Positions 2,969-58,409 of a stretch of 64,000 bases of DNA are shown here, piece after piece; position 1 is the first letter of the stretch; each line of letters begins with the position of its first letter. The DNA comes from a virus: the UHGV virus genome UHGV-0060833, one strand, 5' to 3'. Position numbers and translations under genes: made by a program. A model generated the notes under the pieces. That model ran no database searches. It worked only from the letters and a program-made list of their open reading frames with translations, and was not told the origin of the DNA.

Positions 2969-3204
2969 GAAACAGGGTCACCAACGCATACGATCCCTTT
3001 ACCATTGACGGTAAACCATGCCCTGGTTGATATAGCTTGCCCACCGTGCGTACTGTTTCCATCGGTATGCTGTGCATATTGCTTACCATCAACTAACACT
3101 TCGACTCCGTTGACTTTAAGTAGTGGTTCACTCTCTACAGGAGGCCTGGATGGGAATCCTCCGTGCCCCGAACAAATGCTGTCTTTTGTTGCAATACTTG
3201 CCAC
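2920..3204 (-). CDS. PAAR-like small protein (putative spike-tip cap)
   Basis: 94 aa; VGDPVSCG and ICSGHGG motifs resemble PAAR-repeat Zn-binding proteins. True start may be internal. Confidence 0.5.
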   Translation of the reverse strand: MASIATKDSICSGHGGFPSRPPVESEPLLKVNGVEVLVDGKQYAQHTDGNSTHGGQAISTRAWFTVNGKGIVCVGDPVSCGSTVASGDGLVQVS

Positions 3205-3284
3205 GTCATCACCAATTATTTGCTCTGGTTTTCGTTATTTTAACTTAGGTTACTTGTGGTCTACATGGTGTTAACTATTAAATA

Positions 3285-3301
3285 ATTGCTCTAATAAATA
3301 T
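3285..3301 (+). promoter_or_regulatory. C1 repressor operator-like site
   Basis: ATTGCTCTAATAAATAT, 15/17 to ATTGCTCTAATAAATTT; sits ~70 bp upstream of the uhr-hrdC-dmt block. Confidence 0.7.
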
Positions 3302-3372
3302 TGTTTTTTATGTCGTGTTTTCGGTACCATTCAGCCATCGCCCTTCAATGGGTATTTGTTTGGAGTCGTCAG

Positions 3373-3657
3373 ATGCAGATGGAGCTAATAAGCCGCAAAG
3401 AGTTCGATAGCCGTGTAACCAGCGGTGAACTCGACAACTTGCAGGCTATCAAGGTGAAAGAAGGCTTTTGCCTCATTGGGAATCAGAGCGGAACAAATCG
3501 CGTTTTTATGCTTCGCCGTACGGATTTGAAGCCATTTGTCTGGAAGAACGAAATTGGTCCCAGCTCATACGCTCAAACTAGGGGGTGCCTCAACCTGGCC
3601 TTTTTCTACAAAAACGAGCTTTCTGTGGTTGATATTCAAGGGTTACAACATGTTTAA
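3373..3657 (+). CDS. Small protein upstream of the rdgC homolog (P1 uhr position)
   Basis: GGAG 7 nt before ATG at 3373; overlaps hrdC start by 8 nt. Confidence 0.45.
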
Positions 3658-4555
3658 GCACTGGAAAAACATTACTATTTTTAAACTTTCTCGTGAGGCG
3701 GATCTGACCGACTTGGAAGATAAAAAGAAAATGATCCTTTTCACGCCATGCGGTAGTCAGGATATGGCCAAGTTCGGTTTTGTATCTCCATTTGGTGATA
3801 ATTCCGAAGTTATCGCTATGCATGGAAATGGTTTTATCCTTGTTGAAGCAAAGCGCGAAACAAAAATTCTTCCCCCGCCGGTTATCCAGCGAGCTATTCA
3901 AGAAAAAATTGAAAAACTCGAGCAAGAACAAGCGCGTAAACTGAAGAAAACAGAGAAGGACTCCCTGAAAGACGAAGTTCTGCATTCTCTTCTGCCACGG
4001 GCTTTTTCAAAGTTCTCTGTTATCCAGGCGATCTACGACGGTTCAACTAAACGTATCTATATCAATGCCAGCGCGCGGCAGGCAGAGGATATGCTCGCGC
4101 TTATGCGTAAATCTCTGGGTTCTCTTCCTGTTGTTCCCCTAAGTGTTGAAAATCCCATTGAATTAACGCTGACCGACTGGGTACGTGATGGTAGTGCTCC
4201 ACAGGGATTTCAAATGGGGGATGCGGCAGAACTTAAGGCAGTGCTTGAGGATGGCGGTATTGCCCGAGTGAAAAAGCAGGACTTGGGAAGTGATGAAATA
4301 TCCACACACCTGGAAGCTGGCAAGCTCGTCACTAAGTTGGCACTCGACTGGCAGAACCGCATTAAATTTACACTGGACCATAACTTCAGCCTTACCAGCG
4401 TCAAATTTGCGGATGAATTGCTTGAGCAGAACGCTGATATTGATAGTGAAGATGTTGCGCAGCGACTGGACGCAGATTTCTTCCTGTTGACCAGTGAAAT
4501 TTCGTGCCTGGTTGATGCTCTGGTAAATGCCCTTGGTGGAGAGGCTAAGCAGTGA
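3650..4555 (+). CDS. hrdC: RdgC-like recombination-associated protein
   Basis: [14 protein letters not shown]..., [48 protein letters not shown] and later blocks match E. coli RdgC along the whole length. Confidence 0.9.
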
Positions 4556-6816
4556 AAGAGCTGTGCTATGGATCTGTTTGCAGTGGAATTGAAGCCGCGA
4601 GTATTGCCTGGGAACCGTTGGGTATGCGTCCGGCGTGGTTTGCTGAAATCGAGCCTTTTCCATCTGCCGTTCTTGCGCACCGCTGGCCCCATGTCGCCAA
4701 CCTTGGCGACATGACAAAACTTGCCAAAAAAGTCCTGGCTGGGGAAATCGAATCCCCTGATGTGCTCGTCGGGGGAACACCTTGTCAGGCATTCAGTATC
4801 GCTGGATTACGTGGTGGGCTTGATGATGAGCGTGGCGCGCTAACTTTAAAGTATGTGGAGCTTGCAAATGCAATTGACGACAAACGGGCTGAGTCATTTC
4901 TCAAACCAGCCGTTATCGTCTGGGAAAATGTCCCAGGAGTCTTGTCATCGGCAGATAACGCCTTCGGATGTTTCCTTGCCGGATTGGCTGGAGAAGATGC
5001 GCCATTTGAACCAGGTGATCGACCTGAATCAGGAAAAAGTAACGCGTTCTGGCGGTGGGATGGCAAAACCGGTTGCCATGCTCCAAAGTGGCCGCAGTGT
5101 GGTTGTATTTATGGACCGCAGCGAAAGGTGGCCTGGAGAATCCTTGATGCCCAATACTTCGGAGTGGCACAACGACGCCGACGCGTGTTTGTTGTCGCAA
5201 GTGCTCGAACAGACCTCGATCCCGCAACGGTACTTTTTGAGTTCGAAGGCGTGCGCCGGGATATTGCGCCGAGCCGAAAAAAGAAGGAAATCGCTTCCGC
5301 CATTATTGCAAATGGCGCTGCAATCAGTGGCGAAAGCCTAAATCCATGCCTACATGCTGACATGCCACCCGGTATGAAATCGACGAAAGCCGTAAACGCT
5401 TTCAGGATGGCAGCATTTGGGGAATATATTGACGATGAAACCGCATCGACAGTAAAGGCAAGAGATTTTAAAGATGCCACTGACCTTGCCGTTTTTAGCA
5501 GCACAGGAGCAGCTTTTTGGTCAGAAGGGCATGGTACATTGCGGGCACGTGAGCAAGAAAGCCATGAGCATCTTGTTACATTGGCTTTTCCTGAGCGTAT
5601 GAGCGGTACACAACATGCTGCAACTAAGAATACTTCACCATCTCTAATGGCTAAAAATCCAACAGCTGTTTGCTATGAAGTAAGAAACGCAGAAGTAGCT
5701 GTCCGCCGTCTTACCCCTGTCGAATGTGAAAGGCTGCAAGGTTTTCCTGATGGGCATACGTTGATCCCGACGGAAAAGCGTAAAAAAGTTAGTTCAGATG
5801 AACTGGCATATCTTCGCAATCACTATCCAGATTTAAGCGAAGAAGAGGCCGTGATGCTTGCAGCTGACGGACCGCGTTACAAAGCGATCGGCAATAGTAT
5901 GGCAATACCAGTAATGCGCTGGATTGGCGATCGGATTACTAAGGCCGTATGTCGGCAGAAAGAAGGAAGTGAAACAAAAGAGCGAAAAGTTAAACCAGCG
6001 GCAGAATTCGAACGGTCCATATTCAAATGGGCTGGTGGAAAATTTGGTGTTCTGGAACAAATCTTTCGCTATTTGCCAGAAGGGAAGCGCCTGATTGAAC
6101 CTTTCGTTGGTGGCGGAGCTGTCTTCATGAATGCCGGATACCAGGAAAATCTGCTAAATGATGTGAATGCTGACCTGATTAACTTTTACAAGACTCTGCA
6201 ACGCGAGGCGCATTCACTTATCACTCTGGCACATCGTTTTTTCCTGGACTACAACACCCAGGAGGGATACTTGGCAGTACGGAATGCGTTTAACAAACAA
6301 GTCTATGATGATTTACATCGCGCAGCGGCGTTTTTGTTCCTGAACCGACATTGTTTTAACGGATTGACGCGTTACAACCAGGCCGGTGAGTTCAATGTCG
6401 GTTATGGGAAGTATAAAACTCCGTATTTCCCATTACAGGAGATGGAAGCCTTCCTCGGTGCGGAAGGGCGGTCTGAGTTTGTATGCGGTGATTTTGCAGC
6501 GGTGATTGAAGCTGCCGGAGAAGGAGATGTCATCTTTTGCGATCCGCCGTATGAACCGCTCCCCAATACAGAGGGGTTCACGAACTATTCCGGTCATGAC
6601 TTTAAGTTTGAAGAGCAAAAACGCCTGGTGTCTCTGTTGACGGATGCTCATCGTCGAGGTGCAAAGGTTCTCATTACTAACAGTGGCGCGCCAAACATCA
6701 GAGAGCTTTATCATGACAGTGGCTTCAGAGTGGAACCTCTTTTTGCCAGACGTTCTGTGTCTTGTAAGGGGGACACTCGAGGTGTAGCTCATGACGTTTT
6801 GGGTATATTGCTCTAA
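4552..6816 (+). CDS. dmt: Bifunctional DNA methyltransferase: N-terminal C5-cytosine MTase fused to C-terminal Dam-like N6-adenine MTase
   Basis: N-terminal GGTPCQAFS (PCQ), VIVWENVPG (ENV), [10 protein letters not shown]; C-terminal [10 protein letters not shown] and CDPPYEP (DPPY). 754 aa; start overlaps hrdC stop. Confidence 0.8.
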
Positions 6817-7725: not shown

Positions 7726-7894
7726 GTTGTGATGAAGTGCAGCTCTTTGAAGCAACCAGAAGATAAGCATCTGGCTTCACAACATAAACCGCAGGAACGA
7801 CCAATAAACGGTAGTCCGTATGGAGAACACCCCGTTGAGGAAGAGGCCTGGCCGGAACCGTAACCGGCACTACAACGTTGAGAACACTGGCGTA

Positions 7895-7976
7895 ACGGGG
7901 TCATATCCCAATCTACGAATAAATGTTGCGTTGCAGCGTGACAACCAGTGTTCTCAACATTGTGGTGAATGCACAG
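7895..7976 (+). repeat. Copy 1 of a repeated non-coding element
   Basis: Shares GTAACGGG-T-CATATCCCAATCTAC ... GTTGCG ... GTGAATGC with 8172-8234; embedded in a long inverted repeat (7872-7890 vs 7945-7963). Confidence 0.4.
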
Positions 7977-8171
7977 GCTGATGTGCCGCAACTACAGTAG
8001 TGCGCGCTTTGCGGGGCTTGCTACAACCCTGTGTCGGAGTTCAGCACCGACCATCACAGTTTGATTCTCTGGCATGAGCATAACGCTGAAATAAGTCCAG
8101 TCTGGTGCGGCCCGATCACCCGCCGTTAGCTCCACGAAACGGAGCACGTAACAGGTAAGAGCATTCTCCTG

Positions 8172-8234
8172 TAACGGGTTCATATCCCAATCTACAGGTC
8201 CACCAAGAATGCTCTTTCCGTTGCGGTGAATGCG
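8172..8234 (+). repeat. Copy 2 of the repeated non-coding element
   Basis: AACGGGTTCATATCCCAATCTAC ... GTTGCGGTGAATGCG; no credible ORF across it. Confidence 0.4.
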
Positions 8235-8374
8235 GCTAAGCGCACGCGGGGAAATGGTTATATCTGTCCATTATTTCTCCTTGTTTCCACGTCCACGGTG
8301 GATAACCAGCCAAAGGACACCGGGAGGCACCCGGCACCGCAACCTTATTTCCCAACCAGTAATGAGGTTAATAA

Positions 8375-8800
8375 ATGCTCGGCATTCTCAAAAAGAAATT
8401 CCGCAAAGCGGCTGGCGGAGTCAAGAAGATGGAAAACCGTGATGCGGTGGAAGCGACTGTCTGGGGCGCATATTCCATTGCATACTCTGACGGCACCTGC
8501 GATGCGAAAGAAATTGCAGTATTGGAAAAAACCATTGCAGCACTTCCTGCCTTTGCGCCGTTCTCCGGTGAAATTGCCCAGATGAGCGCCAATATTCGCG
8601 CTCAATATGAAGCCTCGCCGCGCCGAGCGAATGCCCAGGCTTTACGTGAACTGGCTGACGTGTCTGGAACTAATGATGCGGTAGATGTTCTGTGCCTATG
8701 CATTGATATTGCTGACCAGGATGGCATTGGGGCAGAAGATCAGGAGCAATTGAAGAAAATTGCCCAGGCTCTTCAATTGCCACTGGAACAGTATATCTGA
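8375..8800 (+). CDS. TerB-like domain protein (P1 tciA position)
   Basis: 141 aa with TerB-like pattern (AYSIAYSDGTCDAKEIAVLEKTIAAL ... LCLCIDIADQDGIGAEDQEQLKKIA). Confidence 0.6.
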   Translation: MLGILKKKFRKAAGGVKKMENRDAVEATVWGAYSIAYSDGTCDAKEIAVLEKTIAALPAFAPFSGEIAQMSANIRAQYEASPRRANAQALRELADVSGTNDAVDVLCLCIDIADQDGIGAEDQEQLKKIAQALQLPLEQYI

Positions 8801-8964
8801 TGGTTATAAAAGCACGTCTAATTCTGGCTTTGGTTTTTCTCGTGCTATCTGTGCTGGTGGATTTCACCAGCACAATCCTGTCGGTTTTATCCGACGGGGC
8901 GTTGGTAGCAGTAGCTGTAACATTGGTATGGCCGATATTTAAACCAGCCTCGAAGGATCAGTGA
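8800..8964 (+). CDS. Small hydrophobic membrane peptide (54 aa)
   Basis: ATG overlaps upstream stop (TGATG); MVIKARLILALVFLVLSVLVDFTSTILSVLSDGALVAVAVTLVWPIF...; below ORF-track size cutoff. Confidence 0.4.
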   Translation: MVIKARLILALVFLVLSVLVDFTSTILSVLSDGALVAVAVTLVWPIFKPASKDQ

Positions 8965-51131: not shown

Positions 51132-51386
51132 TTATCGCTTTCGCCTGCGTGCCATATATTTGCGCACCGCGCGGCGTGGACAATCTGAAGCGGTTTCTTT
51201 CTGCTGCATCAATCTCGCAGCCATGCTCAAAAATGTCAGGCACAGCCGAAGCCCGGCATACAATAGCGGTTCCAGTGGCCACGTTTCATTAAGCACATAT
51301 ACCGCCATGAAAATCGAGTCGAAAACTATCGCTGCCAGCGATAACTTCATTGTCGAAAGTCTGCGGAGCTGCCGGAGTTTATTCAT
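51132..51386 (-). CDS. Small two-TM membrane protein downstream of lyz (holin/antiholin-like topology)
   Basis: 84 aa; two hydrophobic segments (LSLAAIVFDSIFMAVYVL, LLYAGLRLCLTFLSMAA) and strongly basic C-terminus; start overlaps lyz stop. Confidence 0.45.
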   Translation of the reverse strand: MNKLRQLRRLSTMKLSLAAIVFDSIFMAVYVLNETWPLEPLLYAGLRLCLTFLSMAARLMQQKETASDCPRRAVRKYMARRRKR

Positions 51387-51936
51387 TGACCAGTCCCGTC
51401 AGGCAAAGCTGGCGTTCTTTTTCACGGCGAATCTTTAAACCTCGCAGGGGCACGCCGTTACTGTTCACAAAATCAGGGAGATGGTTACACATATTCACCC
51501 ATTCCCCTTTCTGCGCCCACTTGTGGATGGACGTTTCGACTCGCATGCCTCGCGCTTTGCTGTAGTAGGTCCGTAAGCTATTGCATCCCATATTGAATGC
51601 CGCGCTTGTCATTGCACTAAAGGCATTATCGGGCATGTCTTTGCCCCGGAAGTGCTGATTAATACAGCGTTCAGCGATCAGGATATTCTTTTCCCAATCA
51701 GCGGCGATTTGCTGGTCGGTTTTTCGCACACCCGGCGTTACCCCGTGTGTATTACCGATCCCGTCAGTCCATACCCCCGCCGGGCACATGTATGGATCAC
51801 GTCGGCAACCTTCAGCGTTACCAATCAGCTCAAGCCCCGCCTGGTTGGTTCGCACATTGCCATTACCCATTACGATGGTAATCATCACCGCGATAGCGCA
51901 AATTGCACCGCCTCCTGCGGCTGTTTTTCCCTTCAT
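51379..51936 (-). CDS. lyz: SAR endolysin (T4-lysozyme-like muramidase with N-terminal signal-anchor-release domain)
   Basis: 185 aa; SAR segment AAGGGAICAIAVMITIVMGNG; catalytic block IGNAEGCRRDPYMCPAGVWTDGIGNTHG. Confidence 0.85.
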   Translation of the reverse strand: MKGKTAAGGGAICAIAVMITIVMGNGNVRTNQAGLELIGNAEGCRRDPYMCPAGVWTDGIGNTHGVTPGVRKTDQQIAADWEKNILIAERCINQHFRGKDMPDNAFSAMTSAAFNMGCNSLRTYYSKARGMRVETSIHKWAQKGEWVNMCNHLPDFVNSNGVPLRGLKIRREKERQLCLTGLVNE

Positions 51937-52068: not shown

Positions 52069-52085
52069 ATTGCTCTAATCATTTT
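52069..52085 (+). promoter_or_regulatory. C1 operator-like site upstream of ssb
   Basis: ATTGCTCTAATCATTTT, 20 bp before ssb start. Confidence 0.65.
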
Positions 52086-52104: not shown

Positions 52105-52593
52105 GTGGCACAACGCGGTGTAAACAAAGTCATCCTGATTGGTACCCTGGGGCAAGACCCGGAGATCAGGTATATACCAAATGGCGGAGCGGTCGGAAGA
52201 CTAAGCATCGCAACAAATGAATCATGGCGCGACAAGCAAACGGGCCAACAGAAAGAGCAGACAGAATGGCATAGAGTCGTTTTGTTCGGGAAACTTGCTG
52301 AAATTGCGAGTGAGTATTTACGAAAAGGTTCTCAGGTCTACATCGAAGGGAAACTTAAAACCCGTAAGTGGACAGATGACGCCGGTGTAGAACGTTACAC
52401 GACGGAAATTATCGTCAGCCAGGGCGGCACCATGCAAATGATCGGCGCTCGCCGTGACGATTCACAGTCCTCAAATGGCTGGGGGCAATCGAACCAACCT
52501 CAAAACCACCAGCAATACAGTGGTGGCGGTAAACCTCAGAGCAACGCCAATAACGAACCTCCAATGGACTTTGACGACGATATTCCGTTTTAG
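52105..52593 (+). CDS. ssb: Single-stranded DNA-binding protein
   Basis: 162 aa; OB-fold N-terminus ([43 protein letters not shown]), Gly/Gln-rich linker, C-terminal DFDDDIPF. Confidence 0.95.
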
Positions 52594-52795: not shown

Positions 52796-53590
52796 ATGAC
52801 AGCACAAAATACTAAAACAATTCAATACCGCCTGCGTAATGGCCAGAGTGTCGAAGTGACCATCAATAATGATGGTGTACCTGGCGAAAAGGTTTCGATC
52901 TCTGATCTGGCTATCGAAAAAACCATCATGTGCCACCTTGGCTTTACTGAAGAAGTGAGCAAAAAGCATGGTGTAGCTATCTGGCGCACAATGGATACTG
53001 GCATGCGCAGATTCATTACTGCTCGTACCCCTGGTATGACCATGATGGACCTCATACAGATTGCGCCGCTGTTTGAGTGTGAACCTTTGGATGTATTCAG
53101 CAATCCAGCTATCTGCCAGCAGTTATATGGTGAGATGAAACTCGCGGTTACCCCCATTGTGCTGCATGAAGGATCGCTTGCTGGCGTATGGAAAGTAGAG
53201 CGAATTTCAAGCTACATGCCATTCCACATCCATGTCAACGGCGTAATCGCAGGTGAAAATCAACCTGTTTCAGTTACAAAGTCAGACCTCAATCGCGCAA
53301 TTCTTGAAGCAAGTTGTCGAGTTATCGGCCTGGGCAAACAGTCTTATGTTTCCTTCCCGGCTGGTCCTGAAGGCCCGGCAGAAATTCTGATTATGGATGC
53401 TGATCTGCTCTGGCAAATACAGTTTCTGATTGGCAAAAGCATCATCCGCGCTGAAGAACTCGATCAGTACATTACCTGCACGATGACGGATGAAGTCAAA
53501 AGTGTGGCTATAGCCAATGCCCGGAACCTGTGTCGTGCTGCATTAACAGAACCGCAAGAAAACATTCCAGAAGAAACAGAAAGTGACTAA
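52796..53590 (+). CDS. Hypothetical protein downstream of ssb
   Basis: 264 aa from MTAQNTKTIQYRL; an upstream GTG/ATG start inside ORF 52628..53590 is possible. Confidence 0.5.
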   Translation: MTAQNTKTIQYRLRNGQSVEVTINNDGVPGEKVSISDLAIEKTIMCHLGFTEEVSKKHGVAIWRTMDTGMRRFITARTPGMTMMDLIQIAPLFECEPLDVFSNPAICQQLYGEMKLAVTPIVLHEGSLAGVWKVERISSYMPFHIHVNGVIAGENQPVSVTKSDLNRAILEASCRVIGLGKQSYVSFPAGPEGPAEILIMDADLLWQIQFLIGKSIIRAEELDQYITCTMTDEVKSVAIANARNLCRAALTEPQENIPEETESD

Positions 53591-53596
53591 TAAAAA

Positions 53597-53614
53597 CCCC
53601 GTCAGTTGGCGGGG
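53597..53614 (-). terminator. Minus-oriented terminator immediately upstream of the HipA-like gene
   Basis: CCCCGTC-AGTT-GGCGGGG hairpin preceded on plus strand by TAATAAAAA. Confidence 0.5.
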
Positions 53615-53787
53615 AACTCCACGTCAAATGGCCAATTGTTATGTCAGCTAGCAGTTAAAGCGCCTAGTCATCATCTTTTAAAGAAGTCTTTTTAACTTAC
53701 CTAAATTAGTGACACCTCCCGTTTTGCTTGCTATTGTACGCATTCATGAATCTATTCATTAATCTATTCACAATAGTAATTAAAACT

Positions 53788-55092
53788 ATGGCTATACATG
53801 CAACAACAATCCGTAATTTGCTCAATCAAGGTCCTATGACACCAAGACAATTGGTTGAAAGACTAAGTGTTAGCCAACCAACGATATCTAGAGCATTAAG
53901 AGATCTTGGTGATGAAATCGTTAGGATCGGAAATGGAAGATCTATTCAATATGCTTTACGAGACTCTTTTAGAGGATTCGAATCAGTCCCCATTTATCGT
54001 ATAACTGAAGAGGGGTGTATTTGCGTTCTTGGTACTCTCATTCCGGTGAGGCCAGAAGGCTATGTTATGGTTGAGGAAGGGAAAAATAACAGGCATAGCG
54101 ATGGGTTACCTTGGTGGTTATTTGATATGCGTCCACAAGGCTTCCTTGGAAGAGCATATGCATCAGCATATGCTCTTGAACTTAACCTTCCCTCAAATCC
54201 AGAGCAATGGTCAGATACTGACGTGATCAAAGCCTTACTTAAGCATGGGCATGATGTTGTTGGTAATTTGTTAATTGGAGAGCAAGCACGCACGCATTTT
54301 TTAGAGATGCAGCCTCCTGTTCCTGTTAATCGTGAAAGTGAATATCCTGTATTAGCTTTAGCTGCTGGTGAAGGTGATGTGCCCGGTTCATCTGCTGGAG
54401 GTGAACAACCCAAATTTTGTACTTTCACAGAGCGTGGACATGTATTAGTGAAATTCTCTGCGCCTAACGACACCCCTATAAGTGAGCGTTGGAGAGATCT
54501 CTTGTTTGCTGAACATCTCGCATTAAAAGTTCTGGGGGTAGAAACAGAAGTTTTTGATTATAACGGTCAGAGATTCTTGGAAATTCCCCGATTTGATCGT
54601 GTTGGTCAACTAGGTCGGGTAGGTGTATTCTCACTTCGTGCACTTGATGCAGAATTTGTTGGGAATGCAAGAGCAACATGGCCCTTGCTGGTTAAAGAGT
54701 TGGTAAAAAATAAGTGCGTCCATCCTGATGCGATTATTATAGCAACAAGGCTATGGTCTTTTGGTTTGCTAATAGGCAATACCGATATGCATAATGGTAA
54801 CCTATCGTTTATTAGTAGCCACGGACGCCCATATCATATTGCTCCAGCCTATGACATGTTACCTATGGGTTTTGCTCCACGCTCTGGGGGAGCAATATCT
54901 AATGAGCTTAGAAAAACAGCACTACCAGACTTTGTAAGTCGAAAAATATGGGATGAATCTCTTGAATTGGCTGAAAAATTTTATGCATTGGCCTGTGAGT
55001 CCGACAAATTCTCAGCTAACTTTACTCCATGTTTAGAAGCGCTACGCATCCACCTAGATGATTGTAAGATACGCATAGCCCGCCTGGCATAA
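53788..55092 (+). CDS. HipA-like Ser/Thr kinase with N-terminal winged-HTH (YjjJ/HipH-like)
   Basis: HTH MTPRQLVERLSVSQPTISRALRDL; HipA-like GDVPGSSAGGEQPKF and catalytic-loop-like IGNTDMHNGNLSF; by-eye GC lower than flanks. Start may be 53746 or 53728. Confidence 0.75.
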   Translation: MAIHATTIRNLLNQGPMTPRQLVERLSVSQPTISRALRDLGDEIVRIGNGRSIQYALRDSFRGFESVPIYRITEEGCICVLGTLIPVRPEGYVMVEEGKNNRHSDGLPWWLFDMRPQGFLGRAYASAYALELNLPSNPEQWSDTDVIKALLKHGHDVVGNLLIGEQARTHFLEMQPPVPVNRESEYPVLALAAGEGDVPGSSAGGEQPKFCTFTERGHVLVKFSAPNDTPISERWRDLLFAEHLALKVLGVETEVFDYNGQRFLEIPRFDRVGQLGRVGVFSLRALDAEFVGNARATWPLLVKELVKNKCVHPDAIIIATRLWSFGLLIGNTDMHNGNLSFISSHGRPYHIAPAYDMLPMGFAPRSGGAISNELRKTALPDFVSRKIWDESLELAEKFYALACESDKFSANFTPCLEALRIHLDDCKIRIARLA

Positions 55093-55098
55093 ACAACA

Positions 55099-55120
55099 AA
55101 TCCCGCCGATTGGCGGGATT
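55099..55120. terminator. Bidirectional terminator between HipA-like gene and the end of the darA operon
   Basis: AATCCCGCC-GATT-GGCGGGATT perfect 9-bp stem with T-rich flanks on both strands. Confidence 0.7.
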
Positions 55121-55123
55121 TCT

Positions 55124-55432
55124 TCAATATACGATCTGGTCTGCATGATCACCAAAATCATCGTCGTCGTCCTCATCGCCACCATCTACTGCTGGCCAAT
55201 CAACAAACCAGCCAGCGTAAAGATGCAGCGTTCGGAGAACATCACTTGCGGGAGCATCAAGGGTGTTAACGAATCCCATATAGCTATTGGGATTTGCCCC
55301 AGCTATGGCTTCAGCGATCATGTCCTCGGTAATGTCACCGGAGATAATGCTTAAACGCCCGGAAACTTCTTCATTATCATCAAATTCGATAATGGCATCT
55401 CCGCCTAATGGCGCTGCGATTTTAATCTGCAT
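55124..55432 (-). CDS. Small acidic protein, last gene of the darA operon
   Basis: 102 aa with poly-Asp tail; start overlaps ddrB stop. Confidence 0.5.
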   Translation of the reverse strand: MQIKIAAPLGGDAIIEFDDNEEVSGRLSIISGDITEDMIAEAIAGANPNSYMGFVNTLDAPASDVLRTLHLYAGWFVDWPAVDGGDEDDDDDFGDHADQIVY

Positions 55433-58409
55433 TATTTAGCTCCTTTGCCACACCTAATAACAGTTCCAGCAATCCGTCACCATTCATCAGTGATGCGGCA
55501 GCGGCCTCTTTGTCATGATACAACTGAAGAGCCATAGAGAATACTTCCGTTGCTGACGTTTTGGAAATAGTCGGTGATTTCTGCCGAATTTTCCCGGTGT
55601 TACTTACTGAGGCTGGCGGGTATACCTTCGCCATATAAATATTACTCAATCGAGATCTGAAGCACCATTCAGGCTTGCCACGCCCACCGATATTAACGAA
55701 AGATGGCTTATCCCCTTCAACATTGGCCTTCAGGAATGACCGGGCTTTCTCTAACAAACCAGGGTTACTGTACTCAAGATGATGACCCAGCTCGTGCCAC
55801 AGTGCACTTGCATTTTCATCGTTCAAATTGACAGCAACAACACCATTAAGATTTGCATATGCCCTTCCCTGGTGGTGAACCACCTTTGATAAGGTCGATA
55901 TTTTCCCGCCGGTCAGGCGATAAATATCAGCAAGTTCCTTGCGCAGGTCTATCCCACCACTCTGTCCAGCGCGGGCTTCTTCCACTTCTTCCGTGATAAA
56001 AGAGTCGGCCCACTCAAGAGCTTTTTCTTCAGATACGGATGAGTTGGCTATCGCACTATTCATGGCAGATAACACTTTCTCGTGGACCGAACCCATACTT
56101 CGCTGATTCATTTGCCAGCGTGTCTGCGGGTTATATGAGAATCGCTTAAGTAGTTGGTCAAGATGCTCAAGTTCTTCTTCGCTGACATACTTTTTAGCCT
56201 CACCAATAATGTCGGGGAGAATATTGCCGTTAGGATTAAACGCTCGCGAAAGGAAGAGTTTCAGCGCCCCCATGCCCTCCGATGCTTCAATATCACCAAT
56301 AACACGGTTAACAATGGCCGCACTCTTCGGATTAGCATCCGCCAACGCTCTGGCTACGATTTGCAGGGACGATACGACCTCACGCTGCATATCCGTCCTG
56401 ATCTCATCAATAAACTCTGGCGTTATGCCGTGCTCTTTAAGGATATCCCTGCCTTCCGCCGTTACCCCATCGATATCACCGACATGTTTATTAACCTGAC
56501 TTTGCAATGCCTTAAATGCCTTCAGAATTCCACGGGCATCATCAGCTTTACTAACGGCCTTCCTGAATGCTGGCAAGAAGTCAGAGTTAACCTCATTTTG
56601 TTGATCGGCCCACTGAATGGAGGCTTCTTTCATCTCGTCCAGAGTCAGATCACCCAACGCGGTATGGTCTGTGAATATGAGCGACAACCTCTGAACCATT
56701 TCTGCCAATGGTGATGCCGAATGCGCCGCGCTAAGGAATGCTTTCACCCTGGTTGGGCGAATGGAAAACCAGTCAATAGCTGGTGGCATATCTCCGTTTT
56801 TTATCGCCTGCGCTATCTCGTCAAAGCCATCGCGCCCAAGGGAGGATGCGTGATTTAACAAGCCGCGAAGTAACGAATTGCTGATACCGAATAATCGGCA
56901 CCATTTTTTCACGTCGGCAACAGGCATTCGAACAAAATGCGCAAGCACTTGTACAAGCTGTTCATCCTGGGGATCTGTGCGGGAAAGCAGCCTGATCAGA
57001 TGAATAATGTCTTTGATGCCGGATGCCCGATGTAATAGCAAACTGGTATACGGAGCAACACCGTTGTAACTACCGCCGGAAACGGACTCGAAAAGACCGC
57101 CGGATATCCCTTGCATGCCTTCGTTTTCCAGTTCCTGAGACACCTGGCGAAGGATATCCTGTAACGACACATCACCACCGCCAAACATATCCCCCAGCGC
57201 CTGGCCCTGGTGCTGTAACTCATCATTGATACGTTGAGCCATCAATTTAAAGGCGGTGGCCATACGCTTTGCGCTACGGTTATTCGCGACGATGAACAAC
57301 GCGAGCGCTTTCACTTCCGGGGCTGTTTCGCTGAACATATCCCCCTGAGCAATAACATCGATAATATGTTGGCCTGACTCCTTCGATTGCCTTACCAGGT
57401 CTACCGCATCTTTCAATGCCGCCAGCGCCTTTTTATCGAGACTATCCGCTGTCTCAATACCATCAACAATAGTTGTCACAGCCTGCTTGTGCGCTTCTCC
57501 TGATAAAGCCTGCATCTGGACAAAATCATTGGCTGCCGCATTAAGCGCCGTCAGAACATTACGCATATCCGGATCAGGTTCTTCTGCAACCATCCTTACC
57601 AGGCGCGCATCCTTATATGCCTTGGCAAAGATCGCGTTTTGTATACGGTCTACAAGTTGCCGTGTTGGTCGCCCATCTTCCGTTACAAGGCCAGCAGCCT
57701 GTGTGGCACCAACTTGCGTCATGAATCCGCGAATAAACGCGTCATTACTGCGGCTAAGCAGATCTCCGCTTTCTGATGGGTTAAACAGCGCCATCATCGC
57801 CGGAGTTATGCTGTCAGCATCAACAAAAGCCTTTTCACTGGCTGCCATTTCCTGAAGATCAGAAATATTTGAGTCCTTGGCAAACTGAACGCGGTCAACC
57901 TTAGTTAACCGGCGGCGCACCAGTACCGGAGCCGCCATTGATTCAACCTTTTCAGGTCGTATGCCGAATTCGGTCGCATGATCAATCAGGTACTCACGAT
58001 ACCGATCCGCATTGCCGTCCTGATAGGCTTTGATGATCCCCATGGTCCGTCCATTACCTGACTCAACGGCATTGTCCTCACCAATTATCGGCGCGCCATG
58101 GCTGGATAAACCGGAATCGGTAAGCTGGGCAGGACGCAAATCCTTGGATATCTGGTTGACCTGAAGAAGACTGGATGCGCGGGTCCGGTCGCGCGGCTGA
58201 AGTTCCTGGGGATAGTCAGGGTTAATTTTCCCGTCCAGAGTATTGGATACCAAAAGAGCTGAGGCATCGACGATATCAAACGCTGTTTTTACCTCGTCTC
58301 CCTTCGCTGTCACCACATACGAAACCCGCCCGTAATTGGGCAGGTTTTTTAGCAGCTCGATCAGCGTTTCTATGCTGGTGGCCATTACCACCTGATCGCT
58401 TAAGCTCAT
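55422..58409 (-). CDS. ddrB: Large darA-operon protein (P1 ddrB position)
   Basis: 995-aa ORF following ddrA/darA on the minus strand; name by operon position. Confidence 0.6.
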   Translation of the reverse strand: MSLSDQVVMATSIETLIELLKNLPNYGRVSYVVTAKGDEVKTAFDIVDASALLVSNTLDGKINPDYPQELQPRDRTRASSLLQVNQISKDLRPAQLTDSGLSSHGAPIIGEDNAVESGNGRTMGIIKAYQDGNADRYREYLIDHATEFGIRPEKVESMAAPVLVRRRLTKVDRVQFAKDSNISDLQEMAASEKAFVDADSITPAMMALFNPSESGDLLSRSNDAFIRGFMTQVGATQAAGLVTEDGRPTRQLVDRIQNAIFAKAYKDARLVRMVAEEPDPDMRNVLTALNAAANDFVQMQALSGEAHKQAVTTIVDGIETADSLDKKALAALKDAVDLVRQSKESGQHIIDVIAQGDMFSETAPEVKALALFIVANNRSAKRMATAFKLMAQRINDELQHQGQALGDMFGGGDVSLQDILRQVSQELENEGMQGISGGLFESVSGGSYNGVAPYTSLLLHRASGIKDIIHLIRLLSRTDPQDEQLVQVLAHFVRMPVADVKKWCRLFGISNSLLRGLLNHASSLGRDGFDEIAQAIKNGDMPPAIDWFSIRPTRVKAFLSAAHSASPLAEMVQRLSLIFTDHTALGDLTLDEMKEASIQWADQQNEVNSDFLPAFRKAVSKADDARGILKAFKALQSQVNKHVGDIDGVTAEGRDILKEHGITPEFIDEIRTDMQREVVSSLQIVARALADANPKSAAIVNRVIGDIEASEGMGALKLFLSRAFNPNGNILPDIIGEAKKYVSEEELEHLDQLLKRFSYNPQTRWQMNQRSMGSVHEKVLSAMNSAIANSSVSEEKALEWADSFITEEVEEARAGQSGGIDLRKELADIYRLTGGKISTLSKVVHHQGRAYANLNGVVAVNLNDENASALWHELGHHLEYSNPGLLEKARSFLKANVEGDKPSFVNIGGRGKPEWCFRSRLSNIYMAKVYPPASVSNTGKIRQKSPTISKTSATEVFSMALQLYHDKEAAAASLMNGDGLLELLLGVAKELNNAD

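Follow-up and report, generated by a model that had tools for sequence, protein, structure and literature searches.

The 64,000-nucleotide stretch of DNA analyzed here (UHGV virus genome UHGV-0060833, referred to as the window) belongs to a P1-like phage-plasmid and carries, between the backbone genes isaA and hxr, a hipH/yjjJ-like gene whose predicted product fuses a winged helix-turn-helix (HTH) to a HipA-family Ser/Thr kinase core. We consider it likely that this locus is a complete acquired HipH cassette, comprising promoter, operator, gene, and terminator copy, which resides in a cargo hotspot between ssb and hxr and works by the self-repressing, growth-arresting mechanism proposed below. 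The genes near hipH are 96–98% identical to those of phage P1, and the coordinates of all features are collected in Table 1.

Judged by its sequence, the protein is a clear member of the HipH/YjjJ family that has kept all catalytic residues of HipA. It matches the NCBIfam YjjJ equivalog NF007297 over profile positions 3–446 of 446 with 531.7 bits (E = 1.3e-159), the curated cut-off being 401 bits. The identical protein WP_024187835.1 is listed in RefSeq as 'type II toxin-antitoxin system HipA family toxin YjjJ', meaning that the gene is already named in RefSeq and automated pipelines; its PHROGs entry is phrog_30447, function unknown. In Pfam, the C-terminal part is recognized as HipA_C (3.2e-15), while the N-terminus matches HTH_5 (3.5e-6) and MarR_2 (1.2e-5) in residues 24–63 of a longer, 454-residue form of the protein (see below); beyond HipA_C and these HTH families, neither Couple_hipA nor HipA_N was matched at E ≤ 0.1. 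The segment GSSAGGEQPKF aligns to the Gly-rich loop of HipA, and NTDMHNGN to its catalytic loop (D309–N314). When the protein is aligned with HipA of E. coli and HipH of K-12, S201 falls on HipA S150, and S201/A203/G204, K222, D333/H335/N338, and D356 are invariant among the three proteins. The neighboring serines S201/S202 align with S200/S201 of K-12 HipH, which are autophosphorylation sites in vivo (PMC9948734). In the N-terminal domain, residues S29, Q30, P31, T32, S34, and R35 of the recognition helix are invariant across 41 homologues. An initial sequence-only reading of the window had described a 435–455-residue protein with a winged HTH and HipA-like SAGGEQPK and DMHNGN motifs, resembling YjjJ/HipH; both the family assignment and the placement of the two motifs are borne out by these comparisons.

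Structure-based searches point in the same direction. A family profile compared with the PDB retrieved HipT(Lp) (1.7e-6) and HipA (2e-4), as well as ArsR/NmtR for the N-terminus, and returned no structure of a HipH protein. An AlphaFold2 model built with 41 homologues was poor (predicted local distance difference test score 65.5, with the active-site region below 50). Its top Foldseek matches were HipA, CtkA, and HipT, at template modeling scores of only 0.34–0.44, and the N-terminal domain matched FeoC, CzrA, and SmtB with a root-mean-square deviation of ~2 Å. These matches agree with the sequence evidence, yet provide weak corroboration of little independent weight.

The characterized relative is HipH of E. 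coli K-12 (b4385), which belongs to clade X of the Hip kinase tree and is monocistronic, with an N-terminal HTH that, it was suggested, might act as an antitoxin in cis (Gerdes et al, 2021; PMC8262856). K-12 HipH is toxic when overproduced, autophosphorylates, phosphorylates RpmE and CsrA, and alters cell division, glycogen, and ribosome assembly (PMC9948734). The phage-plasmid protein shares with it the combination of an HTH and a HipA-type core, the two serines of the Gly-rich loop, the catalytic and Mg-binding motifs, the monocistronic organization, and ATCTATTCA boxes ahead of the start codon. It differs in showing only 35% identity, in length (434 versus 443 residues), and in lacking the small insertion that bears the K-12 phosphosite S217; moreover, K-12 hipH occupies a chromosomal deoD–lplA locus, whereas the window gene lies on a phage-plasmid. 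Much closer are the chromosomal 434-residue YjjJ proteins of Pantoea, Serratia, Gibbsiella, Enterobacter, Scandinavium, and Proteus, which are 67–72% identical over the full length and are preceded by the same promoter and boxes. Compared with these, the phage-plasmid copy has a much lower GC content at third codon positions (GC3; 0.29), and their genes are chromosomal, in a neighborhood that differs by genus. Pairwise identities therefore suggest that the protein represents a distinct 434-residue HipH subclade.

A contrary report holds that HipH toxicity is kinase-independent and results from an HTH-dependent DNase activity for which cyclic di-GMP (c-di-GMP) acts as antitoxin (PMC11452175). 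Transferred to the window, this would make the protein a phage-borne genotoxin tied to c-di-GMP signaling rather than a kinase toxin. In that study of HipH from K-12 and uropathogenic E. coli, deletion of the catalytic motif left the protein toxic and HTH deletions abolished toxicity; HipH was nucleoid-localized and cleaved DNA in vitro, and the hipH promoter was c-di-GMP-regulated (PMC11452175). The catalytic and Mg-binding residues are, however, invariant across the family (48–72% identity), K-12 HipH, and HipA, which argues for selection on kinase chemistry. In addition, Pfam detected no nuclease motif in the window protein, and the DNase model comes from a single study of a 35%-identical protein that conflicts with the kinase data (PMC9948734). 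We therefore regard a DNase mode of toxicity as improbable and favor a kinase.

The product is also set apart from the Hip toxins that work with a separate partner. It shares with HipA (of hipBA) and HipT (of hipBST) the kinase fold, the catalytic residues, and autophosphorylatable serines in the Gly-rich loop; unlike them, it has no HipB or HipS partner gene, fuses the DNA-binding part to the kinase, and is only 24% identical to HipA. The hallmarks of a canonical HipBA module are missing, as there is neither an upstream hipB open reading frame (ORF) nor a HipA N-terminal subdomain. The spacers flanking hipH measure 197 nt upstream, with only ORFs of up to 39 residues, and 31 nt downstream; no ORF of at least 50 residues was found in either, and the Prokaryotic Genome Annotation Pipeline (PGAP) annotates none. 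A hidden antitoxin ORF was considered and rejected, since the spacer ORFs comprise merely 21–39 residues and are unsupported. The neighborhoods of chromosomal homologues likewise offer no partner. These genes are solitary, and their context differs in each genus: beside a type I restriction–modification (RM) system, between flagellar operons near prophage remnants, after cusCFBA, near AraC and LysR regulators, or at the end of a P2-like prophage together with AbiTii and hok. The 150 ORFs around 32 homologue loci fall into 135 Pfam families dominated by efflux, short-chain dehydrogenase/reductase, LysR, and AraC types, none of them occurring in more than three ORFs, so that no recurrent neighbor emerged from this set. 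PADLOC returned scattered single-protein matches for the same 150 ORFs, a figure that has no baseline for comparison.

The absence of a partner bears on a role in plasmid addiction, in which post-segregational killing would stabilize the low-copy P1 prophage and the HTH would serve as antitoxin in cis. The RefSeq label of a type II toxin-antitoxin system points this way, as does the cis-antitoxin role suggested for the HTH extension (Gerdes et al, 2021; PMC8262856). A single polypeptide, however, offers no separately labile antitoxin and hence no obvious activation upon plasmid loss, only ~6% of P1-like plasmids carry hipH, and most family members are chromosomal. Furthermore, P1 is already equipped with the addiction module phd-doc. 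We thus consider addiction very unlikely.

The longest ORF at the locus starts at a TTG (53728..55092, 454 residues). Nevertheless, the ATG at 53788, yielding 434 residues, is almost certainly the real start, because PGAP uses it in plasmids with 100% identity and because the close homologues are all 434 residues long. The TTG start was rejected: it lies inside the −10 region, its 20 extra residues are encoded by the boxes described next, and both PGAP and the homologues begin at the ATG. Upstream of this ATG, a promoter scan revealed a putative sigma-70-type promoter with an extended −10 element, and the same GTGAC...TGnTAnnnT arrangement precedes enterobacterial homologues. Between the −10 element and the ATG lie four tandem 12-bp repeats with the consensus ATCTATTCA, which we term HipH boxes; the last, degenerate one ends 5 nt before the ATG, and no Shine–Dalgarno sequence is visible. 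K-12 hipH is preceded by three perfect ATCTATTCA boxes (5700–5769 of the K-12 stretch compared), identical to those of the phage-plasmid, and the same arrangement of promoter and boxes is found upstream of five chromosomal homologues.

We surveyed the boxes at 80 homologue loci of Gamma- and Betaproteobacteria (48–72% identity), in each case over the 76 nt preceding the homologue. At least two copies of the ATTCA core were present at 79 of these loci, and a pair spaced exactly 12 nt apart at 71, compared with none in 1,540 control windows taken from the same loci. Among successive ATTCA cores, 147 of 168 spacings equaled 12 nt. The last box ends 5 nt 5′ of the start codon at 57 of the 80 loci, a register that the window retains through its degenerate fourth box. 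So constant a position points to coupling between the operator and either translation initiation or a very short leader. The SQPTxSR recognition helix is invariant in the close family, while three loci with SQPTxTR carry TAT(G/A)ATTCA boxes; this hints at co-variation of helix and box, but one evolutionary event could also account for it. The boxes are thus most likely the operator of the fused winged HTH, mediating autorepression and covering the transcription start and the short leader. The searchable literature contained no description of the box sequence in this context.

A third exact ATCTATTCA copy occurs within the hipH coding region (53940–53948, plus strand), ~150 nt past the ATG. The window holds three exact copies in total, 0.63 being expected; the coding-region copy may be a chance occurrence or an auxiliary site.

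Control by the phage regulators C1 or the late activator was rejected for this promoter, as 53590–53790 contains no C1 operator and no Lpa box, the nearest C1 site being Ossb at 52069. The cassette therefore appears to stand outside the phage regulatory scheme. Across the window, 14 matches to the P1 C1-operator consensus were found with up to three mismatches (0.33 expected), for example at 3285, 6807, 22436, 35479, and 52069, as would be expected if the element has an intact P1-type immunity network. Although the two proteins are only 35% identical, K-12 hipH shares the boxes, and cross-regulation between prophage and chromosome is possible.

How the cassette entered the P1 backbone can be read from its junctions. 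In SJ46 and plasmid p91, nothing but a single bidirectional terminator, AAAAAAATCCCGCCGATTGGCGGGATTTCTTC, separates an isaA-like gene from hxr. Both 53588–53613 and 55090–55115 of the window align to this one hairpin of insert-free relatives, so that diverged copies of a single terminator flank the insert on both sides. The downstream copy, which lies between the convergent stop codons of hipH (55092) and hxr (55124), has a folding free energy of −17 to −19 kcal/mol and T-rich tracts on both sides, and is identical or nearly identical in more than 150 P1-like plasmids without hipH. The upstream hairpin (−13.3 kcal/mol on the plus and −10.3 kcal/mol on the minus strand) has lost its right-hand T-run. 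Of 23 core positions, 5 are not the same in the two copies, among them a compensatory exchange in the stem (C–G versus T–A), and the distance from the hipH stop to its hairpin equals that from the isaA-like stop to the hairpin in insert-free backbones.

The divergence extends into isaA. Relative to p91, the gene is ~99% identical up to ~53555, followed by 14 mismatches in 53556–53605; in 297 plasmids without hipH, the last 114 nt are merely 83–89% identical and homology ends at 53613. The imported block thus spans ~53556–55097 and starts ~35 nt inside the 3′ end of isaA. The upstream, minus-only hairpin is accordingly a diverged second terminator copy that arrived with the block. Most likely, the block entered when a more distant element, with hipH already located downstream of an isaA-like gene, recombined homologously with the backbone. 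A fresh target-site duplication left by a transposon was rejected, given these differences between the hairpin copies and a divergence that begins within isaA.

These data uphold and refine the earlier view of the locus as a moron inserted beside the darA-side operon. The extent assigned to it, 53597–55120, runs accurately from hairpin to hairpin (53597–53614 and 55098–55121), the upstream one terminating in the minus orientation only, as had been noted. hipH lies on the plus strand and converges on the minus-strand hxr–ddrB genes, confirming the opposite orientation. With 42.5% GC and a GC3 of 0.287, it also falls below its surroundings, as claimed, the whole window having 48.1% GC and the five neighbors isaA, hxr, ddrB, ssb, and lyz a GC3 of 0.41–0.56. 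An alignment to P1, which the sequence-only reading had proposed, placed IS1 and isaB at this site, in agreement with an insertion; what changes is the origin of the upstream hairpin, which came with the block. Together, minority presence, conserved flanks, atypical GC3, a promoter-like site (a consensus match only), and flanking hairpins give the locus the features of a moron.

Such cargo has a hotspot in the ssb–hxr interval. In a spread sample of P1-like plasmids, it contained ssb–isaA–hxr alone or with a DUF2829 gene, an isaB-like gene, an OmpC/NmpC porin, a porin together with mcr-1/ISApl1, an IS1-flanked autotransporter, or an annotated anti-phage dGTPase. At the hipH site, P7 has the nmpC porin (3144–4259 of the P7 stretch compared). 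The dGTPase gene occupies the interval in 53 plasmids, in the same orientation as hipH (7738–9093 of one stretch); it replaces isaA, whereas the hipH variant retains it. The dGTPase, the NmpC/OmpC porin, IS1/isaB, and mcr-1 resemble hipH in location, in being present in a subset of elements, and in their moron-like organization, but the proteins and their functions are unrelated.

The distribution of hipH agrees with its being foreign, horizontally acquired cargo, as its composition and junctions also indicate. It was absent from P1, P7, and SJ46 and from 20 of 20 P1-like phage records, and a tblastn search detected no HipH-like protein in 50,697 phage records. In PLSDB, hxr was present in 483 plasmids, 30 of which (~6%) carry hipH, always between isaA and hxr. 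These carriers are plasmids of clinical and livestock E. coli. Thus, hipH is not a fixture of all P1-like genomes at this site, and its product has the HipA catalytic residues, the two points on which its interpretation as an inserted HipA-type gene had been said to turn. This gene was present in 26 of 5,426 complete E. coli genomes; 8 of 215 E. coli matches are on chromosomes. An assembly collection lists the exact protein in 1,264 indexed blocks; at all 10 places inspected, it lay in a P1-like context. In one assembly (GCA_958333505.1), a 575-kb contig holds ssb–isaA–hipH–hxr–ddrB at 10782–13305, followed directly by an IS605-family OrfB/TnpB gene and, beyond it, by chromosomal-type genes (OapA, FKBP); this junction could stem from integration or truncation of a P1-like element, or from the joining of sequences during assembly.

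The PLSDB copies form two alleles, at 99.8–100% and about 97.5% identity, and every one of the 30 is intact according to its annotation. Between the alleles there are 24 nucleotide and 9 amino-acid differences, and the hairpin, promoter, and boxes are kept in both. Their ratio of nonsynonymous to synonymous substitution rates (dN/dS) is 0.175, which shows purifying selection on hipH within the phage-plasmid lineage. This speaks against a neutral passenger or decaying gene, a reading that could draw on the minority presence of hipH and on the miscellaneous cargo gathered by the hotspot. Given the low dN/dS, the 30 intact plasmid copies, the retention of promoter, boxes, and terminator in both alleles, and the 1,264 assembly blocks with the exact protein, we regard it as highly improbable that the acquired cassette is not functional.

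Within the phage-plasmid cluster, identity is at least 97.5%, and the nearest relative is at 72%; this gap implies that the donor is unsampled. Composition and the fourth box hint at a low-GC, Morganellaceae-like donor, the closest sampled protein being only 72% identical. Searches of the literature returned no paper linking P1-like elements with yjjJ, or phage-plasmids with a relevant HipA.

With its degenerate fourth box, seen as AATTA also in Proteus cibi, and its low GC3 of 0.29, hipH of the phage-plasmid resembles the Proteus homologue. A Proteus mirabilis record (NZ_OL790811.1) shows 69.5% nucleotide identity to hipH.

Table 1. Features of the hipH locus and of its backbone neighbors, in window coordinates.
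Feature	Coordinates	Strand	Remarks
lyz	51379-51936	-	Backbone neighbor
ssb	52105-52593	+	Backbone neighbor; C1 operator (Ossb) at 52069
isaA	52628..53590	+	P1 backbone gene, function unknown; 96.5% identical to P1 isaA up to 53564
Upstream hairpin CCCCGTCAGTTGGCGGGG	53597..53614	-	T-run on minus strand only; diverged copy of the isaA/hxr terminator
Putative sigma-70-type promoter	53709..53737	+	-35 GTGACA (53709), 17-nt spacer, extended -10 TGcTATTGT (53729-53737); promoter scan
Four tandem 12-bp HipH boxes (candidate operator)	53738..53782	+	ACGCATTCA at 53738, ATCTATTCA at 53750, ATCTATTCA at 53762, degenerate TAGTAATTA at 53774
hipH/yjjJ-like gene	53788..55092	+	434 residues; winged HTH fused to HipA-family Ser/Thr kinase core
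ArsR/MarR-like winged HTH	53800..53976	+	Residues ~5-63; recognition helix SQPTISRAL
Gly-rich loop GSSAGGEQPK	54385..54414	+	Residues 200-209
ATP-binding K222	54451-54453	+	Equivalent to HipA K181
Catalytic loop D333-M-H335-N-G-N338	54784..54801	+	Equivalent to HipA D309/H311/N314; also aligned to HipT(Lp)
Mg-binding D356	54853-54855	+	Equivalent to HipA D332
Downstream hairpin AAATCCCGCCGATTGGCGGGATTT	55098..55121	both	Bidirectional terminator between the hipH and hxr stop codons; backbone copy
hxr	55124..55432	-	Backbone gene converging on hipH; first on the darA/ddrB side; 98.3% identical to P1 hxr
ddrB	55422-58409	-	Backbone neighbor beyond hxr

In the mechanism that we propose, the lysogen would transcribe hipH from the gene's own sigma-70 promoter with its extended −10 element. 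The N-terminal HTH would bind three to four ATCTATTCA boxes and repress synthesis of the protein, keeping its level low. Once accumulated or activated, the kinase would phosphorylate host proteins and thereby cause growth arrest, with autophosphorylation of S201/S202 limiting its activity, as in HipA and HipT. After prophage induction, transcription from the C1-controlled promoter Pssb could pass through isaA and read into hipH, because the upstream hairpin is without a U-tract on the plus strand. For autorepression through the boxes, the comparative evidence is strong; growth arrest by Ser/Thr phosphorylation is suggested by analogy with the family.

What the phage-plasmid gains is the weakest step of this scheme. 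We rank conditional growth arrest or abortive infection directed against competing phages first, as a tentative proposal. As a dedicated anti-phage module, HipH would be inactive in the lysogen and triggered by a competing phage, whereupon phosphorylation would abort the infection or exclude the superinfecting phage; put in this specific form, we likewise hold the idea to be possible but doubtful. The annotated anti-phage dGTPase in the same interval of 53 P1-like plasmids fits such a role, as does a survey of P1-like phage-plasmids that lists dGTPase, CapRel, type III RM, and PrrC, with HipH not mentioned (bioRxiv 10.1101/2025.09.12.675607). Systems that combine a HipA-like kinase with DUF3037 (HipAD/DS-6/PDC-M66) are validated anti-phage defenses in which a catalytic residue is required (PMC13092281, PMC12548924). 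HipAD thus demonstrates that the HipA-family kinase fold shared by HipH can act in defense; unlike this two-gene system with its DUF3037 neutralizer, however, hipH has no such partner. Some chromosomal homologues also adjoin type I RM genes, or AbiTii at a P2-like prophage end. On the other hand, no sensor or partner is evident, and the cargo of the hotspot includes non-defense genes as well (mcr-1, an autotransporter, a porin, and IS1).

Several observations weigh against the self-repressing kinase and its use in defense. The −10 element TATTGT is imperfect, that the HTH binds the boxes is proposed from their conservation and position only, and a host factor or an RNA-level role could account for the boxes instead. 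The poor AlphaFold2 model gives no structural support for a cis-inhibitory HTH. With the sole characterized HipH, that of K-12, the protein shares only 35% identity, and its substrates may differ, while the mechanism of HipH toxicity is itself disputed (PMC11452175 versus PMC9948734). With respect to defense, PADLOC 2.0 yielded no significant match for the protein, the best being WYL (7e-4, confined to the HTH region) and PDC-M03A (1e-3, covering 33 catalytic-loop residues), and the neighbors of chromosomal homologues are mostly housekeeping or regulatory genes with scattered defense matches only.

The second-ranked benefit, which we also put forward tentatively, is a modulation of host physiology or dormancy. 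As a regulator of lysogenic conversion, HipH at low level would phosphorylate CsrA and RpmE, or cross-repress chromosomal hipH, and so alter growth, carbon storage, dormancy, or antibiotic tolerance; this, too, is possible rather than probable. K-12 HipH acts on CsrA and RpmE, with effects on division, glycogen, and ribosomes (PMC9948734), and the three perfect ATCTATTCA boxes of K-12 hipH make cross-regulation physically plausible. The ordinary, non-defense neighborhoods of the chromosomal homologues and the clinical and livestock origin of the carrier plasmids fit this role as well. Arguments to the contrary are the 35% identity to K-12 HipH and one study in which overproduction of YjjJ left antibiotic tolerance unraised. 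In a further, rather unlikely proposal, HipH is a one-protein, self-repressing growth-arrest kinase that serves as interchangeable anti-phage cargo beside the dGTPase of sister elements. Its HTH would recognize the 12-bp tandem operator found throughout the family and also at host hipH, the prophage copy thereby plugging into or overriding the chromosomal HipH circuit.

HipH/YjjJ is a widespread orphan toxin kinase whose mode of toxicity, by kinase or DNase activity, is disputed. The phage-plasmid provides a natural test system for it, in which a unit of promoter, boxes, and gene has moved into a phage-plasmid hotspot that in other elements houses an anti-phage gene, and lysogens with and without hipH occur in nature. 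The 12-bp boxes are a concrete candidate operator for the fused HTH and, being common to host hipH, allow cross-talk between prophage and chromosome to be tested. Should hipH turn out not to be protective, it would be an ordinary accessory toxin gene that pipelines already annotate correctly. If it does protect lysogens, HipH would join the defense repertoire of P1-like elements, which are common in clinical and livestock E. coli, as a component missed by PADLOC. As anti-phage cargo, if that reading is true, it would provide the first biological role for the HipH family and the first Hip kinase acting from a phage genome.

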